From Thermoproteota archaeon (GTDB taxonomy: Archaea; Thermoproteota; Thermoprotei_A; Sulfolobales; NBVN01), in assembly GCA_030550455.1 (NCBI GenBank), contig JAUQPH010000002.1, positions 100,950-164,949 of the forward strand: a stretch of DNA of 64,000 nt. Reading direction: 5' to 3'. A program made the position numbers and the translations under genes. This document shows, piece after piece, positions 16,864-56,101 of this stretch (the stretch's first letter is position 1; each line of letters opens with the position of its first letter). Under the pieces are notes generated by a model. That model worked only from the letters and a program-made list of their open reading frames with translations, was not told where the DNA came from and made no database searches.

Positions 16864-17174
16864 ACGGTTTTAGAAAGAGGTTTTCACAACTTCTCTTATG
16901 TAACTGAGTAACTGATAGCAGTAGCAAACGAAGTTTCGAGCTAGGGGGACTACGAAGCTGGTTGTTTTAGTTGTAGAGATTTGTGAGTTCAAGTTAGTTG
17001 ATCGTCATTTAGGTGGAGGCTTCGGACATCGCAGTAGTTTCGATTGGCAGAGAAAACGGTGATTTAGACTGCTTGGGTAAATACAAATCTAGTACGAAAA
17101 TTCTGCTCTACTAGCCTACTATATAAATCAACCTACAGCAACTCAGACTTAATACTTTGTACTCAATCATGAAA

Positions 17175-17183
17175 CTATTTAAG
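17175..17183 (+). promoter_or_regulatory. TATA-like box CTATTTAAG about 30 nt upstream of tRNA-Met
   Basis: AT-rich box at archaeal TATA spacing from the tRNA 5' end. Confidence 0.4.
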
Positions 17184-17208
17184 TTTTCTCTGAACCACAC
17201 TTATGGAG

Positions 17209-17298
<90 letters not shown>

Positions 17299-17409
17299 CT
17301 CGGGATGATTAGTGACTCCAATAATGAATAGATGATGCGACTCCATCCCTGTATGACCGCCCTTAAACAGGTTAAAAATGTAACTACTCCTACCTATGTG
17401 GTGTAGGTA

Positions 17410-18507
17410 GTGAACGGAGGTAGTGAAATAGCGTCGTACCTAATAGTGTTGCTCTTTTTAGTGTCATTACTGATGAACTTCACTGATATACCGCAGAGGA
17501 TTCAGTTGCATAGGTTCTCCTCGTTTGTAAGGAGGAAGCTATATACTCTTGAGGAAATGGAGGTTGACGCTAGAAGAAAAGCGATCGCATACATGAGTAG
17601 TACCGGAATTAAGGAACCTTCAAAGGTTCTCGAAGGGTTTATGGATAACTTCTTCCTCATAAGGCCTGTAGATATGGAGCCCACAGATATAATAAAAAGG
17701 TTTAAGCACCTCATTAGAGTGCGAGAAAGTTCTGTTCGAGACTACGTGAGGAGGGTTTTAAGTGGTGCGGAGAGGAGTGTACAATACTCTGTTGAGACTG
17801 TCTTAGAGATAGTGAGTGTGATGAGACTACTAAACAAACTGATTAGGCACTATCTTGAGCTTGGACTCAAGTACAACAACTGGATCTTAGTAATGCAACT
17901 AGCTATCCAGATGCCTGAGCTTGTAGAAATAGCTAAAGCCTATAGGAACTCCTTAGACGCTTTTACTTCCGGTATACCGATAGGCGATAGTGTAGGTCCT
18001 CTAGTTGCTAAGATGTTAGTGAACTGGAAGGAACCGATTCGTGAGATATCGGAAGGAACAGACCTATACGAAACCGAAGTCGAAGGCAGAAAAGTGTACG
18101 TCATCAAGGCTTCAGGACCGGGCTCTAATGTCGGTTGGCCAGGTGAAGCCCTAGAAAAACTTGTCGAAGAGTTAGGTGGCGCTATCGACAGAATAATCAC
18201 TGTAGATGCCGCCTTAAAGCTGGAGAGCGAGGAATCAGGTGAAGTAGCTTTCGGCACAGGTGCCGCTATCGGCGACATAGGGCCGGAAAAAATAGCCATG
18301 GAGAGAATAGCCAGCAAGTACTCTATACCCCTCGATGCTGTAGTAGTTAAAATGAGTGAAGTGGAAGCGCTGAGTCCCCTCACTAAGAAAATATACGAAG
18401 GTGTTGTTAGGTCTTATGAAGTAGTTAGGAAAATCATCATTGAGAAAGTTAGAGACGGGGGAGTAGCCGTCGTCGTAGGAGTAGGAAACACTGTAGGTGT
18501 TAAGTGA
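17410..18507 (+). CDS. conserved archaeal membrane-anchored protein (DUF1512-like)
   Basis: 365 aa; single N-terminal TM helix followed by a soluble domain. The family assignment is from memory of archaeal DUF1512 proteins and is not verifiable here. Confidence 0.45.
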   Translation: MNGGSEIASYLIVLLFLVSLLMNFTDIPQRIQLHRFSSFVRRKLYTLEEMEVDARRKAIAYMSSTGIKEPSKVLEGFMDNFFLIRPVDMEPTDIIKRFKHLIRVRESSVRDYVRRVLSGAERSVQYSVETVLEIVSVMRLLNKLIRHYLELGLKYNNWILVMQLAIQMPELVEIAKAYRNSLDAFTSGIPIGDSVGPLVAKMLVNWKEPIREISEGTDLYETEVEGRKVYVIKASGPGSNVGWPGEALEKLVEELGGAIDRIITVDAALKLESEESGEVAFGTGAAIGDIGPEKIAMERIASKYSIPLDAVVVKMSEVEALSPLTKKIYEGVVRSYEVVRKIIIEKVRDGGVAVVVGVGNTVGVK

Positions 18508-18791
18508 TGCTGTTACAGCTCGACGCATTAATGACAGCACTACTAATAGCTCTATTTCTGCTTCTACTAACAACCCTACTCCCATGGCTGATTTCAGTAA
18601 CTAGCTCTAAGTCTAAAGTAGTTAAAGAAGAGTTAGTCGAGCTCGTAGGCTGCCCTAAGTGCGGCTATGAATCTTCAAGAAAGTACGAAAAGGGGGATTA
18701 CGTAGGTAAGGTAGTTGGTACTTGTCCAAAAGACAGTAATTCCCTGATAGTCAAGGCAATATACGTTGAGAAACACACCTACGCGCAATAA
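18504..18791 (+). CDS. small membrane protein with C-terminal zinc-ribbon-like motif
   Basis: 95 aa; N-terminal TM helix, then CPKCGY...GTCPKD; ATGA start/stop overlap with the upstream gene. Confidence 0.45.
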   Translation: MMLLQLDALMTALLIALFLLLLTTLLPWLISVTSSKSKVVKEELVELVGCPKCGYESSRKYEKGDYVGKVVGTCPKDSNSLIVKAIYVEKHTYAQ

Positions 18792-18795
18792 GTTA

Positions 18796-18834
18796 TGGTA
18801 GCCGGGCGGGGATTCGAACCCCGGTCACGGGGGA
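18796..18834 (-). tRNA. orphan tRNA 3' half (positions about 38-76 including CCA); candidate split-tRNA half or att-site remnant
   Basis: Minus strand reads T-CCCCC-GTGAC-CGGGG-TTCGAAT-CCCCG-CCCGGCT-A-CCA: anticodon-stem 3' strand, variable loop, perfect T arm, acceptor 3' strand. No matching 5' acceptor strand (AGCCGGG) or D arm lies upstream. Confidence 0.6.
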
Positions 18835-18878
18835 TCTCCCGCTCGGCCGCCAACCCCCTAATAGACCGTGCTAACTCG

Positions 18879-18886
18879 CTTATAAG
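18879..18886 (-). promoter_or_regulatory. TATA-like box CTTATAAG upstream of the orphan tRNA half
   Basis: Same octamer as upstream of both tRNA-Thr genes. It lies about 48 nt upstream of the exon start, leaving a GC-rich leader of about 20-25 nt (GGGGGTTGGCGGCCGAGCGGGAGA). Confidence 0.4.
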
Positions 18887-19022
18887 TTTTGATATTGAAG
18901 CGTTTTCCACATCTATACATGCGCTAGCCATGACTGTAGGTCCGAAACCTGTGAAGTGGGAGAAGAGTTGAACTAAGCCAACACATTAAGCAACCAAGAG
19001 AAGAAAGAGAGGAAGTTAGCCC

Positions 19023-20837
19023 CTACATCTTTACGACTTTAGTTAGTCTTCTGGGTTTATCTACGTTTATTCCTCTTCGCTTTGCTAAGTGGTAAGCTAG
19101 GAGTTGTAACGCTACTGCTATAGCTATCGGCATAAAATGCCTTTTCATACTGGGTACTCTTATCTCAGTAAGCTTAGACCTCTCGCTCTTAGTAGTATGG
19201 GATAAGAGTACTGCTGGACTTCCGTACTCTAGTACTTCTTCGACTACGACCAGCATGTCTTCAGCGGCCACCGGCTCTAGAGGCTCTATAAACACGACGA
19301 ACACGTTTTCGTCTAGAATCGCTATAGGTCCATGCCTTAATTCACCACCTTCAATACCCTCCGCGTGTACATACGCTGCTTCCTTTATCTTCAGAGCTCC
19401 CTCTAAGGCTAGCGGGTAAGCTATACCTCTCGATACGACATATCCACTGCTACACTTTGTGAGACGTTTTGAGGCTTCTTCTGCTTCTACTGATACTTTG
19501 TTTAAGTTTTCAATTAGAACAGTATGTACACTTTCGAATTCGTGCCAGATCTCAGATAACGTGTTGGAGATAGGTGTGTTAACTATAGTTGCGACGGACT
19601 TAGCTAAAGTGTAAAGTAGCACTAGCGTCGATGTAAAGGTTTTAGTTGCCGGGACAGCTAGTTCTGGACCGGCAGCTATTGGTAAGTATATGTTTGAAAA
19701 CCTTGTCAGCCTCGAGTTTATGTTGTTAGTAACTCCTATTACTGTAGCACCTCTGAGTCTAGCCTCGTAAGCAGACCTAACGACTTCTGAGGTTTCACCA
19801 GACTGACTTATAGCTATTACTGAGTCACCGACACTTACACCATCGAGGTAGTACAGCAAGAACTCAGACGCGCTAACTACGGTTGGTACTATACCAGCTA
19901 GCTCCGAGAGGTAGTAAGAGAACACCATGCCGGCATGAAGGCTTGTCCCGTTAGCTGTTACGAAGACTCTATTGCTCCTACGTATCATTTTAGAGGCAAG
20001 CTCTAAGTACTTAGCTTGAAGCGCCGAAGCCGTTCTTAAAATACTGTAAGGTATCTCGTATATCTCACGGAGCATATGGTGAGGAAACCCACTCGTTTCT
20101 ACTAAGGATTCATCGAGGTGATAATTTAGGAATTGCCTTGAAAGAGTCCTCCCGTTCAGGTCAGCAAAAACTATGTTACCTTCACTCGTTACGACGACCA
20201 TCTCACCCCCACTAATTTCAGAGTACTCGGTAACCATGCCGTGAAGACTAGAGAGAGTGGAAGCTATCGCTAAGAGGTCTCTACTAAGCCCCACATAGAT
20301 TGGTTGATGTGATGTGTAAGCGATAGCTGAACCGTCTTTAAAGAAGGCGATAGCTGTCACAAACCCCTTAAGTTTAGCGATGGCTTCTGTAAACGCCCTC
20401 GTGTGACTAAATCCTTTTTTCGCAAAGTCCTCTATGAGGTGCGGTAAGAGCTCGAAGTCGGATTTTGAAGTAAGTTTATGTCCTTTCTCTACTAATTCCG
20501 TATACAGCTCTTCGTAGTTTCTTACAGCTCCATCGCCTACTACGACTACAGTCTTTTCACAGTCTGCATGCGGATGAGCATTCCTCGCGTCAGCTTTTCC
20601 ATGCGTGGAGTACCTCGTGTGGCCGAGAACGCTAATCGCTGACCTGTCTCCAAGAGAATACTTGGTATAGAGTTCGCCAATTGGGCATGAATCCTTGACT
20701 ATCTTCACCTCGCCTCCTTCGAGCCACGCTAAACCACTACAGTCTCTGCCCCGAAACTCCATCCTCGTCAGAGCAAGTCTAGCTAAGGGAATTACGTTAA
20801 GGCCTCCAGTAGACCTGATAAAGACCAACCCGCCCAC
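19023..20837 (-). CDS. glmS: glutamine--fructose-6-phosphate aminotransferase-like protein (GlmS family) with a degenerate glutaminase active site
   Basis: 604 aa; GATase-2-like N domain (RMEFRGRDCSG, HTRYSTHG, NAHPH) and two SIS domains (ISQSGETSEV, ALEGALKIKEAAYVHAEGIEGGELRHGP, C-terminal VDKPRRLTKVVKM). The N-terminus is MGGLVFI where MCGI is expected. Confidence 0.85.
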   Translation of the reverse strand: MGGLVFIRSTGGLNVIPLARLALTRMEFRGRDCSGLAWLEGGEVKIVKDSCPIGELYTKYSLGDRSAISVLGHTRYSTHGKADARNAHPHADCEKTVVVVGDGAVRNYEELYTELVEKGHKLTSKSDFELLPHLIEDFAKKGFSHTRAFTEAIAKLKGFVTAIAFFKDGSAIAYTSHQPIYVGLSRDLLAIASTLSSLHGMVTEYSEISGGEMVVVTSEGNIVFADLNGRTLSRQFLNYHLDESLVETSGFPHHMLREIYEIPYSILRTASALQAKYLELASKMIRRSNRVFVTANGTSLHAGMVFSYYLSELAGIVPTVVSASEFLLYYLDGVSVGDSVIAISQSGETSEVVRSAYEARLRGATVIGVTNNINSRLTRFSNIYLPIAAGPELAVPATKTFTSTLVLLYTLAKSVATIVNTPISNTLSEIWHEFESVHTVLIENLNKVSVEAEEASKRLTKCSSGYVVSRGIAYPLALEGALKIKEAAYVHAEGIEGGELRHGPIAILDENVFVVFIEPLEPVAAEDMLVVVEEVLEYGSPAVLLSHTTKSERSKLTEIRVPSMKRHFMPIAIAVALQLLAYHLAKRRGINVDKPRRLTKVVKM

Positions 20838-20945
20838 TTCAGGAACCGTAACACACTTGAGTATCGCTAAAATATGCGTGACGTAGTGTAGTGACGATCA
20901 GCAACTTAAGTTCTAATTAAGCTCTAACAACTTGGATGAGCGAAT

Positions 20946-22178
20946 TTGCCACCGCAGACAGTAACCGTGGGAATAGTCGGTAAAACTAATGTAGGTAAAA
21001 CAACCTTCTTCTCAGCTGCCACGCTACTTGACGCGAAAATCGAGAATAGACCTTTTGTAACTATAGACCCAAATATAGGTATAGCTTACGTCAGGAAAAA
21101 ATGTGCTCACGTAGAATTAGGTCTCCAATACTGCAATCCTAAAAACTCCATCTGCCTTGGAGGCTATAGGTTCGTGCCCGTGAAGGTGTACGACGTCGCA
21201 GGTCTCATAAAGGGGGCACATAGAGGGAGGGGGTTGGGGAACAAGTTCATGGACGATCTAAGGCAGGCAGACGTTCTTCTCCACATAGTAGACATGTCTG
21301 GTGAAACAGATGAAGAGGGTAATCCAGTAAGGCCGGGCTACTACGACCCCCTCGACGAGATTGAGTCCATAGAGTTCGAGATAAATGAGTGGTTTTATGG
21401 AGTGATAGCACGTGATTGGGATAGGTTCTCGAGAGGATTAGACACGCTATCTTGGGATGAAGTCGTTTCTAGAATAGCAAAAAGAGTTTCTGGTCTATCT
21501 ATAAAGAGGGAACATGTAGTCGATGCTCTACGTGAGACCAAACTTGAGAACACCAAGCCCGGATCATGGAAAGAGGAAGACCTTAGGCTATTCTCTAGAA
21601 AGCTAAGGGAGTTAGCTAAGCCCCTTATAGTGGTGGCAAATAAGATGGATATTCCAGAAGCCGAAGACAACTACAGAAGAGTTATTAATAGCTTAAAAGA
21701 TAGAAAGGTAGTTGTACCAACAAGCTCACTGTTTGAACTAGCTCTAAGAAAAGCTGCTAAGTCTGGTTTAATAAGATACTTACCTGGCGACTCGTACTTT
21801 GAGGTAGTAGATGAATCGAAGTTAACTACGAAGCAGAAATTAGTGCTAGACAGAATAAGGGAGTTCATGAGAAAATACGGGGGAACCGGCGTCCAGAGAG
21901 CTCTGGATACAGCAGTTTTCGATGTGCTCAGAATGATCGTAGTGTACCCAGTCGAAAACGTCTCTAAGTTAAGTGATAAAGATGGAAACGTTCTTCCAGA
22001 TGCCTATCTTGTCAGACAAGGAACGACAGCAATGGAATTAGCAGAAATGGTGCATACAGAGTTAGCTAAAGGATTCATAGCTGCCTACATAGTGAATAAG
22101 AACAAGAGAACTGGTGCAGAATATAAACTATCCGACGGAGACGTGGTCAAGATAGTATCAGCCACAGCTCGCGGATAA
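20946..22178 (+). CDS. P-loop GTPase of the OBG/YchF-like class with a C-terminal TGS-like domain
   Basis: 410 aa; G1 GIVGKTNVGKTT, G3 DVAGL, G4 ANKMD, C-terminal LSDGDVVKIV. Confidence 0.7.
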   Translation: MPPQTVTVGIVGKTNVGKTTFFSAATLLDAKIENRPFVTIDPNIGIAYVRKKCAHVELGLQYCNPKNSICLGGYRFVPVKVYDVAGLIKGAHRGRGLGNKFMDDLRQADVLLHIVDMSGETDEEGNPVRPGYYDPLDEIESIEFEINEWFYGVIARDWDRFSRGLDTLSWDEVVSRIAKRVSGLSIKREHVVDALRETKLENTKPGSWKEEDLRLFSRKLRELAKPLIVVANKMDIPEAEDNYRRVINSLKDRKVVVPTSSLFELALRKAAKSGLIRYLPGDSYFEVVDESKLTTKQKLVLDRIREFMRKYGGTGVQRALDTAVFDVLRMIVVYPVENVSKLSDKDGNVLPDAYLVRQGTTAMELAEMVHTELAKGFIAAYIVNKNKRTGAEYKLSDGDVVKIVSATARG

Positions 22179-22254
22179 AACTAACTCTCCTTCTCACACT
22201 CTAACTTAACTCACATAGATGTTAGTGTCTTCATGAGTTCGCGAGCATTGATCA

Positions 22255-22500
22255 GGGGTTAAGCTCCTGTGCTGGCTTGTATTGGTTGATTTCAACGCCT
22301 CGCTCCCGTTTCCCAGCATCTTACTCAGAACCTCATCGGTCTCGGAGCACCCCAGACTCCACACCTTGAGTGTCTTAGTGAGAGCCTTTGCGGGGCTCTT
22401 GATCCCTCATTGAGACCACTTCCGCATATGAAGCGCTAAAGACACTCACAAAAGTCCCCACCCACATCAACCGACATGAATAGATATGAAATCCGAAACA
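22255..22500 (+). repeat. dispersed intergenic element family, copy B
   Basis: GGGGTTAAGCTC..TGCTGGCTTGTATTGGTTGAT..CCGTTTCCCAGC..CACACCTTGAGT..hairpin AGAGCC/GGCTCT..GATCCCTCATTGAG..ATCAACCGACATGAATAGATATGAAATCCGAAACA. Confidence 0.7.
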
Positions 22501-22598
22501 GTCACGTTGTACACCTCGAACTCCTAGCTTACCATAGACACTACTGACCGTACATTGGGCTGTCTTCTTCTTGATCTCACTAGGAAACGTCTATAAGC

Positions 22599-22788
22599 CT
22601 TGTTTCTATCTATTTCTGTGACGAGCCCGGTGGCGATGGGGGCTATGTCCCGAGGTTCTCAGGGCTTAAACTAGGTGGGAGCTCCGTGCGGTTGGGCTCG
22701 GCGGTCACCCATCAACCGACGTGGATACCTAAATCCACGTGGGTGAGGTGGAAGTCCATAGATGTAACCACCAACGAAAACGAAACGA
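22599..22788 (+). repeat. dispersed intergenic element family, copy E (short variant with inverted GTTTC/GAAAC termini)
   Basis: Starts CTTGTTTCTATCTATTTC (inverted form of the family right end). It contains CACCCATCAACCGACGTGGA, matching copy B CACCCACATCAACCGACATGAA, and ends ..CCACCAACGAAAACGAAACGA. Confidence 0.45.
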
Positions 22789-23031
22789 TCGAGATGAACA
22801 TCTAGAGAAAAACGGTTCAAACACTGAGGATAGAACCAAAATGCTCATCGCAAACAGCAAGAGAAGTGGAGAACTTATTTAGATAGGCGTTAGCGTAGCT
22901 TACCACTTTAAGGAGCAGTAACGATGAGATGTTTTGCGCGCTTACAGCGGTAAAGCAATGAATATATGGGATAGTAAATATAGAATAGTAAGTAAATAGT
23001 AAGTAATAAGTATTTCTCTAGTGGGAATTCA

Positions 23032-56007: not shown

Positions 56008-56101
56008 GGGCCCGTCGTCTAGCCTGGTTAGGACGCCGCCCTTACGAGCTTCCGATTCCTGCGAGAGGCGGAGGTCCGGGGTTCGAGTCCCCGCGGGCCC
56101 A
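56008..56101 (+). tRNA. tRNA-Val (anticodon UAC) with a 19-nt intron at 37/38
   Basis: Acceptor GGGCCCG/CGGGCCC, D arm GTCT..GGAC, anticodon arm CCGCC-CTTACG[agcttccgattcctgcgag]A-GGCGG (intron about 56047-56065), T arm CGGGG-TTCGAGT-CCCCG. Confidence 0.9.

Follow-up and report, generated by a model that had tools for sequence, protein, structure and literature searches.

Split tRNA genes, in which the halves are encoded separately, carry complementary GC-rich leaders and trailers and are processed by the splicing endonuclease at the junction, are known from Nanoarchaeum equitans, including its tRNA-Gln(UUG), and from Caldivirga maquilingensis, which has both split and tri-split tRNAs (Randau 2005; Fujishima 2009; PMC4033280). 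In these organisms both halves are known, and one 3′ half can serve two 5′ halves with different bases at position 34. The tRNA-Gln(UUG) of N. equitans is split at 32/33, not at 37/38 (PMC3218864). In known 3′ halves the spacing of BRE and TATA implies a GC-rich leader of 20-25 nt, and a promoter displaced in this way is the signature that Chan et al. used for 3′ halves and permuted genes (PMC3218864).

The closest case to the locus reported here is that of the split tRNA-Asp genes of Aeropyrum and Thermosphaera. Both cases come from Desulfurococcales-type crenarchaea, share a break at 37/38 and have a 3′ half with its own BRE/TATA that predicts a 20-25-nt GC-rich leader; moreover, in both a close relative retains an uninterrupted gene, pointing to a late split. 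They differ in that the 5′ half of the split tRNA-Asp adjoins its 3′ half and a 14-bp GC-rich stem follows the canonical splicing motif, whereas the present case concerns tRNA-Gln(CUG), has its 5′ half more than 10 kb away or absent, and is clade-wide rather than confined to a single species. The split tRNA of A. pernix was verified by RT-PCR and northern blot, whereas the present locus is known from sequence alone.

Architecture of an orphan tRNA 3′ half

We analyzed a 64-kb stretch of archaeal DNA (hereafter the window). On its minus strand, positions 18833..18796 form an exact tRNA 3′ exon, running from position 38 to A73 and followed by CCA. Read from 18890 to 18796, the whole element is AAAA-CTTATAAG-cgagttagcacggtctatta-GGGGGTTGGCGGCCGAGCGGGAGAT-CCCCCGTGACCGGGGTTCGAATCCCCGCCCGGCTA-CCA, in which the segment 18858..18796 consists of GGGGGTTGGCGGCCGAGCGGGAGAT followed by CCCCCG TGAC CGGGG TTCGAAT CCCCG CCCGGCT A CCA. 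Its parts, all on the minus strand, are as follows.

18890..18887, minus strand: A-rich BRE-like stretch, part of the putative promoter of the 3′ half as recognized by sequence
18886..18879, minus strand: palindromic TATA box CTTATAAG, part of the same putative promoter and likewise recognized by sequence
18858..18834, minus strand: 25-nt GC-rich leader GGGGGTTGGCGGCCGAGCGGGAGAT, preceding the 3′ exon
18858..18854, minus strand: G-run of the leader
18853..18849, minus strand: variable segment of the leader
18848..18840, minus strand: invariant leader segment GGCCGAGCG, the presumed long-helix strand for the trailer of a partner
18839..18836, minus strand: GGAG of the leader, the central-helix strand, complementary to C32-U35 of tRNA-Gln
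18835 and 18834, minus strand: A and T of the leader, bases 1 and 2 of a 3-nt bulge
Between 18834 and 18833, minus strand: predicted splice site
18833..18799, minus strand: tRNA-Gln(CUG) 3′ exon, positions 38-73, identical to the 3′ exons of the outgroups described below
Within this exon, minus strand, in order: C38; CCCCG (39-43); variable loop TGAC; T arm CGGGG-TTCGAAT-CCCCG; CCCGGCT (66-72); A73
18798..18796, minus strand: CCA, encoded in the genome sequence

ARAGORN and Rfam (at the gathering threshold and at E<=1) found five complete tRNAs in the window, namely two tRNA-Thr, an intron-containing tRNA-Met, a tRNA-Asp and an intron-containing gene read as tRNA-Val, and none at this locus. 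No AGCCGGG strand with a D arm was found upstream of the exon or elsewhere in the 64 kb, and no second copy of the 3′ half is present in the window. The initial annotation, which had described an orphan 3′ half whose upstream sequence could supply neither the 5′ acceptor strand nor a D arm, was thus right on both points. Its parse of the fragment needs correcting: the exon starts at C38 (18833), one base 3′ of the proposed start, so that CCCCG forms the 3′ strand of the anticodon stem and the variable loop consists of the four nucleotides TGAC. The CCA is also encoded by the intact tRNA-Gln genes of the outgroups and is absent from the five other tRNA genes of the window. On the other side of the CCA, a conserved small ORF that follows the DUF1512 gene is convergent with the orphan half and ends 4 nt away.

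We also looked at the putative promoter. The window contains three copies of the octamer CTTATAAG against 2.3 expected, which is chance level overall; all three are upstream of tRNA-type genes, including both tRNA-Thr genes, as had been noted initially. In the five intact tRNA genes the TATA-like element starts at -27 to -35 relative to the mature 5′ end, and in front of the orphan exon it starts at -53, so that a leader of about 25 nt (20-25) is predicted. Consistently with the proposal of a tRNA-type box followed by a GC-rich leader, the leader delimited here measures 25 nt, with 19 GC-rich bases preceding GGAG; the box starts 28 nt before the G-run, the gap between the two measuring 20 nt. 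In the window, as in one relative (L106), the box lies next to the end of the upstream gene, not its start, and is therefore not the promoter of that gene.

Exon identity and the position of the break

In order to find the corresponding loci in relatives, the neighboring DUF1512 protein was looked up in public assemblies and the same neighborhood was fetched. Results showed that two more distant groups, with DUF1512 proteins 58-61% identical, have an intact tRNA-Gln(CUG) gene less than 3 kb from DUF1512, labeled tRNA-Gln(ctg) by ARAGORN. One of these outgroup genes is intron-less (L101:10484-10559), and the other, located 4 nt behind a tRNA-Met gene, contains a 20-nt intron after position 37 (L035:8844-8939). 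Over the 38 nt at 18833..18796, the window matches the 3′ exon and CCA of both genes with 100% identity, and the 5′ exons of the two genes are identical to one another (AGCCGGGTCGTCTAGCGGCCAAGGATGCGGGGCTCTGG). Because of this identity, the outgroup genes fix the start of the exon, the anticodon-stem strand and the variable loop, as well as the Gln(CUG) assignment. As judged by this comparison, the fragment is the 3′ part of a tRNA-Gln(CUG) and not a chance look-alike. A1:U72 is a hallmark of archaeal tRNA-Gln, and the fragment carries the archaeal tRNA-Gln features U72 and A73.

The outgroup genes also settle what the U72 had been taken to mean. The initial annotation had suggested an initiator tRNA, which is ruled out by the identity to intact tRNA-Gln genes with a CTG anticodon; in addition, the GGAG of the leader would mispair with a C-U-C-A loop and fits C32-U33-C34-U35. 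Similarly, the GGGGG expected for the 5′ strand of the anticodon stem has to be replaced by CGGGG, which the outgroup genes show at positions 27-31.

The break falls at the canonical 37/38 site, as proposed, and this is the very place of the L035 intron. The last 6 nt of the leader (GGAGAT) are identical to the 3′ end of that 20-nt cis intron, and 7 of the last 8 nt match. The L035 intron has GGAG-AT as its last bases before C38; its GGAG is paired to C32-U33-C34-U35, and the bulges A-T-C38 on the 3′ side and G36-G37-C on the 5′ side make up a canonical bulge-helix-bulge. The window locus holds the 3′ side of this arrangement only, with GGAG complementary to C32-U35 and a bulge A-T/A|C38. As the leader ends in GGAG-AT before C38, like the L035 intron, the 3′ side of the splicing motif is, by homology, intact in the window.

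We considered whether the fragment could belong to a complete gene in another form. A cis intron in a complete gene, with the leader serving as anticodon stem and loop and GGC as anticodon, was rejected considering that position 33 would vary among T, A and G in the relatives, that no 5′ acceptor strand or D arm lies upstream, and that the central helix in cis would contain two mismatches. A permuted tRNA was rejected as well, since no sequence resembling a 5′ half follows the CCA and the conserved ORF ends 4 nt away. In one relative (L104) ARAGORN called a tRNA-Ala, which is absent from the Rfam results and is a false positive.

Conservation of the locus among relatives

Ten related sequences, with DUF1512 proteins 76-100% identical to that of the window, have the orphan half in the same position (L028, L029, L032, L103, L106, L099, L104/L105 and L034, plus the six near-identical assemblies L001-L006). 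The exon and CCA are invariant in all ten. The proximal leader GGCCGAG(G)CGGGAGA is likewise invariant, with the exception of one inserted G in L034/L104/L105, and the last leader base is either T or A, as would suit an unpaired position in a bulge. A run of 4-6 G is kept in all ten sequences. So is CTTATAAG, which precedes the G-run by 20-24 nt and has A-rich sequence beyond it; the tRNA-type promoter box proposed initially thus recurs in the relatives. The only variable part of the leader is a block of 4-5 nt between the G-run and GGCC, which takes the forms TTGGC, TAGGC, CAGC, CGGT and CGGC.

The remaining intergenic DNA is unalignable among the related sequences, and the gene on the promoter side differs by lineage, being GlmS, RpbG, GatD-GatE or AnmK. 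With an exon, proximal leader and box that stay invariant (alignment A2, mean column identity 70%) between diverged flanks and next to differing upstream genes, the comparison indicates a unit, presumably transcribed, that is under purifying selection rather than in decay. An intact tRNA-Gln lies within 3 kb of DUF1512 in both outgroups, as opposed to none in the clade loci fetched.

A proposed split tRNA-Gln(CUG) and competing explanations

The most economical explanation for the features of this conserved unit is that it encodes the 3′ half of a split, trans-spliced tRNA-Gln(CUG), a reading that we favor at somewhat better than even odds. It is preferred because a tRNA-type promoter, a GC-rich leader and the 3′ side of a splicing motif precede an exact tRNA-Gln 3′ exon. 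According to this model, an independent transcription unit would encode only positions 38-76 of tRNA-Gln(CUG). Transcription would start about 22-25 nt after CTTATAAG and give a precursor of about 63 nt, made of the 25-nt GC-rich leader and the 3′ exon with CCA. A separate gene would supply the 5′ half, positions 1-37, with the expected sequence AGCCGGGTCGTCTAGCGGCCAAGGATGCGGGGCTCTGG, or AGCCGGGTCGTCTAGCGGCCAAGGATGCGGGGCT[CT]TGG in a form that covers both CUG and UUG, and its trailer would pair with the leader. Together the two RNAs would restore the acceptor and anticodon stems and a bulge-helix-bulge in which C32-U35 pair with the GGAG of the leader, flanked by the 3-nt bulges G36-G37-N and A-U-C38. 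Both bulges would be cut by the archaeal splicing endonuclease, and an RNA ligase would then join G37 to C38; genes for the endonuclease are present in the loci L032, L099, L103 and L104. The fragment may have originated either by duplication of a virus attachment site or by a rearrangement within an intron-containing gene.

We searched for the 5′ half with the complementary trailer that the initial annotation had predicted, and for an intact gene. Neither a 5′ half nor a leader complement was found in the 64-kb window, where a scan for RNA duplexes with the leader returned only its own antisense, or in any of the related sequences over 6-10 kb on either side of the locus. Likewise, the window and the approximately 150 kb fetched from the same clade yielded neither an intact tRNA-Gln nor a 5′ half. 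One specific candidate, a 5′ half between tRNA-Met and DUF1512, as an inversion of the tRNA-Met/tRNA-Gln tandem of the outgroup would leave it, was rejected, as only a C/D-box-like element lies there. A scan of a genome-contig collection with GGGGGN7GCTCGGCCGCCAAC gave 21 chance bacterial matches; this pattern demanded GGGGG at 27-31, where the outgroups have CGGGG, and the scan did not recover the locus of the window itself, the species being absent from that collection or masked in it. A first metagenome scan, with a pattern that made the same demand of GGGGG at 27-31 instead of the outgroup CGGGG, gave 0 matches. A second one, with GGGGYTYTGR followed by 0-3 nt and CGCTCGGCCGC, gave 61 matches, all of them GC-rich bacterial chance matches and none a tRNA half. 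The second scan makes it slightly less likely that a trailer of perfect complementarity directly follows the bulge; its weight is small because an exact 11-nt leader complement was required, making the scan blind to G.U pairs and mismatches, no positive control was included and the presence of the clade in the collection is unconfirmed. Scans of viral contigs with the leader and with either exon returned nothing but one Sulfolobus-type provirus end. Unconstrained folding and co-folding were uninformative for these GC-rich RNAs, and in a local phmmer test a 12-residue match to the exon in a spurious ORF would give an E value of 150 to 26,000.

A point against the split tRNA is an alternative pairing in cis, between GGCCGAG in the leader and CCCGGCU, the 3′ strand of the acceptor stem (6 of 7 pairs). 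The locus might encode a functional small RNA that derives from part of a tRNA-Gln, stands alone and needs no 5′ half, which would account for the fact that none turned up; one possible form is a GGCCGAG-CCCGGCU stem beside the T arm and CCA, with RNase P removing the upstream G-run. Weak partial matches of tRNA-like covariance models to the orphan stretch align in this way (tRNA-like domain of tmRNA, 17.9 bits, E 0.0034 for the whole window; mascRNA-like, E 0.095), strict conservation starts exactly at GGCCGAG, and the inserted G of L034/L104 would sit at the junction of the fold, outside the helices. However, both scores are far under the gathering scores and the mascRNA model scores an ordinary tRNA-Asp higher (27.5 bits), the fold energy is ordinary (z = -1.0), and the stem, whose A.C mismatch is conserved and whose terminal pair is G.U, lacks the strength expected in a hyperthermophile. 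The fold also leaves the conservation of the G-run, of GGAG and of the 2-nt bulge unexplained, and we know of no archaeal precedent for such an RNA. We therefore consider a stand-alone RNA unlikely. Less probable still, and very unlikely in our view, is a chimera in which the tRNA-Gln intron recombined with the 5′ part of a class II tRNA gene, so that the supposed leader would be the promoter and positions ~1-19 of that gene; in its most exotic form, two tRNAs would be reciprocally split and swapped between two transcripts. The D-arm motif GGCCGAGCGG is typical of tRNA-Ser/Leu, and the leader of L099/L103, GGGGCGG-T-G-GCCG-AGCGG, does look like an acceptor strand, U8 and this motif, with the G-run sitting where a mature tRNA 5′ end would be relative to the TATA box. 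A chimera leads one to expect a tRNA gene beginning with GGGGCGGTGGCCGAGCGG. The resemblance was spotted post hoc in GC-rich sequence, though, it is degraded in the lineage of the window, which has a 3-nt insertion, and it competes with two more post-hoc likenesses of the same leader, one to tRNA-Gln positions 28-37 and one to the 5′ strand of the acceptor stem.

The remaining explanations involve viruses. Within their integrase genes, SSV5 and SSV6 carry an attP equivalent to position ~27 through the 3′ end of Sulfolobus tRNA-Gln(CUG), and a tRNA-Gln(CUG) gene forms the end of an IMG/VR provirus contig; tRNA-Gln(CUG) is thus a real fusellovirus target. Integration of the SSV type leaves an orphan 3′ tRNA copy, and the part in question is the same in the same tRNA (from ~27 to the 3′ end in the virus, from 28 or 38 to the 3′ end here). 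When the 63 nt were compared with phage records by BLAST, matches were obtained only to Sulfolobus spindle-shaped viruses; the attP of SSV5/SSV6, coming from viruses of Sulfolobus, is only 89% identical to the orphan exon over 37 nt. In addition, the G-run plus GGCC of the leader resembles positions 28-37 and the first intron bases, with 9-10 of 12 positions matching in L106 and L099 as aligned by eye. If this resemblance is homology, the fragment starts where the viral core starts, and an origin by attachment-site duplication is plausible.

The locus could accordingly be a non-functional remnant, that is, an attR-type duplicated site or a truncated pseudogene left by a fusellovirus-like integration into an intron-containing tRNA-Gln(CUG) gene, with the intact copy elsewhere, which would fit with the failure of our searches to find a 5′ half. 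We regard this as improbable. Unlike an SSV attachment site, the orphan half is adjoined by no integrase fragment or viral gene in any related sequence, only by housekeeping genes, and its exact exon and leader sequence is absent from IMG/VR and PLSDB. A neutral remnant would be expected to decay like the flanks, whereas the exon, the proximal leader and a correctly spaced and oriented BRE/TATA are invariant. Although the exon could be kept constant by gene conversion from an intact copy, the promoter could not, and the variable equivalents of 33-35 should have been reset as well. Differences from the intact gene cluster at exactly these equivalents, the bases that would form the central helix in cis, so that the equivalent of the anticodon loop is mutated and the rest is frozen; to us this looks like selection against self-splicing of the truncated molecule. 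The attachment-site alternative offered by the initial annotation gains a point from the equivalence of the fragment with the SSV5/SSV6 attP; as an account of what the locus is today, it is contradicted by the strong conservation, which includes the promoter, and by the lack of integrase and viral genes. Finally, a duplicated attachment site of tRNA-Gln, from about position 28 to CCA, could have been domesticated into a promoter-driven conserved small RNA with no 5′ half, an ordinary tRNA-Gln(CUG) being encoded elsewhere. Such an RNA might act as a tRNA-like molecule or decoy, for example against fusellovirus integration or in tRNA-Gln metabolism; we give this idea little credence, roughly one chance in eight.

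If confirmed, the split reading would provide the first split tRNA-Gln(CUG), and an example of a split tRNA gene persisting throughout a clade, here of uncultured Desulfurococcales-like archaea ("Sulfolobales archaeon" in NCBI), rather than in a single species. Three forms of one tRNA gene would then be found among relatives, intron-less (L101), intron-containing (L035) and split, which is the series needed for testing a late origin of the split from intron-containing tRNA genes. The overlap with the fusellovirus attachment core would moreover give a handle on the old proposal that integration of mobile elements drives or selects for tRNA fragmentation. In practical terms, the locus would account for a tRNA that standard annotation of the genomes of this clade would report as missing.

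As in N. equitans and C. maquilingensis, it is possible that one 3′ half is shared here by two 5′ halves. The GGAG of the leader is complementary to the anticodon loop of tRNA-Gln with CUG, or with UUG through G.U pairs, as its G can pair with either C34 or U34.

Encoded CCA ends and the fusellovirus attP core

The CCA end is encoded in the tRNA-Gln genes of this group, intact and halved alike, and the remaining five tRNAs found in the window have no encoded CCA. The encoded CCA was located as follows:

Window 18796-18798, in the orphan tRNA-Gln(CUG) 3' half
L035:8937-8939, in the intact, intron-containing tRNA-Gln of an outgroup locus
L101:10557-10559, in the intact, intron-less tRNA-Gln of a second outgroup locus

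In the Sulfolobus viruses SSV5 and SSV6, the attP core lies inside the integrase gene (int) and is the portion of Sulfolobus tRNA-Gln(CUG) that starts near position 27 and runs to the 3' end, its translation being ...QGSGPWDQGSNPCPAT.

L108:1304-2308, SSV5 int, containing the attP core
L109:1247-2311, SSV6 int, containing the attP core

Read in the frame that the SSV integrases use, the window's Gln fragment lies in an open stretch of 50 codons (minus strand, 18931..18779), and along this frame similarity to the integrase N-terminus was not seen outside the tRNA-coded part.

Gene order around the Gln 3' half

Comparison of the window lineage with the lineages of the related loci L028 and L029 revealed that a block within window 16864-23031 is inverted relative to its flanks. 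The block has the order tRNA-Met, DUF1512, small ORF, Gln 3' half, GlmS and GTPase, and is flanked by PolB on one side and by Pus10-SRP54-eIF5A on the other; no clear inverted repeat was found at its ends. In two related sequences (L034:7534-10756 and L104:11536-14758), gatD-gatE face the tRNA-Gln 3' half on its promoter side. These genes encode the amidotransferase that turns Glu-tRNA-Gln into Gln-tRNA-Gln, and the arrangement may reflect either a coincidence or a functional neighbourhood.

Candidate RNAs and corrected tRNA annotation

Two further elements of the window have counterparts in related loci:

Window 17301-17358, plus strand, conserved element of about 60 nt directly 3' of tRNA-Met (17210-17298)
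L034:5815-5880, its counterpart, also found in L099 and L103
Window about 22590-22830, plus strand, GC-rich block in the 850-nt gap from the YchF-type GTPase gene to Pus10
L106 around 18700-18900, minus strand, its homologue

In all clade sequences the first element starts 3 nt past the intron-containing elongator tRNA-Met. It contains two GATGAT(T/G)...GACTCC units and gave several weak matches to families of archaeal C/D-box sRNAs (sR46, E 0.034; sR7, sR55 and sR38). The element probably encodes a C/D-box sRNA that shares a transcript with tRNA-Met. In the outgroup L035, by contrast, a tRNA-Gln gene occupies this slot instead of a C/D-box-like element.

The GC-rich block (GAGCCCGGTGGCGATGGGGG...CTCAGGGCT...GAGGTGGAAGTCCATAGATG...CATCTAGAGAAAAACGGTTCA) is preceded by a GTCTATAAG box; its motifs are preserved in L106, and the stretches separating them differ. 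An Rfam search of the block returned zero matches, even at E 10. Because its GGAAGUCC and ACGGUUCA motifs resemble conserved regions of RNase P RNA, the block may encode a divergent form of that RNA, or else some other structured RNA that has escaped annotation.

Concerning tRNA annotation, the 'tRNA-Ala' called by ARAGORN at L104:4141-4234 was rejected, being without Rfam support. Both intron-containing tRNAs of the window were misread by ARAGORN: reading by hand gives Met(CAT) at 17210-17298, called 'cata' and interrupted by 14 nt of intron, and Val(TAC) at 56008-56101, called 'tt' and interrupted by 20 nt.
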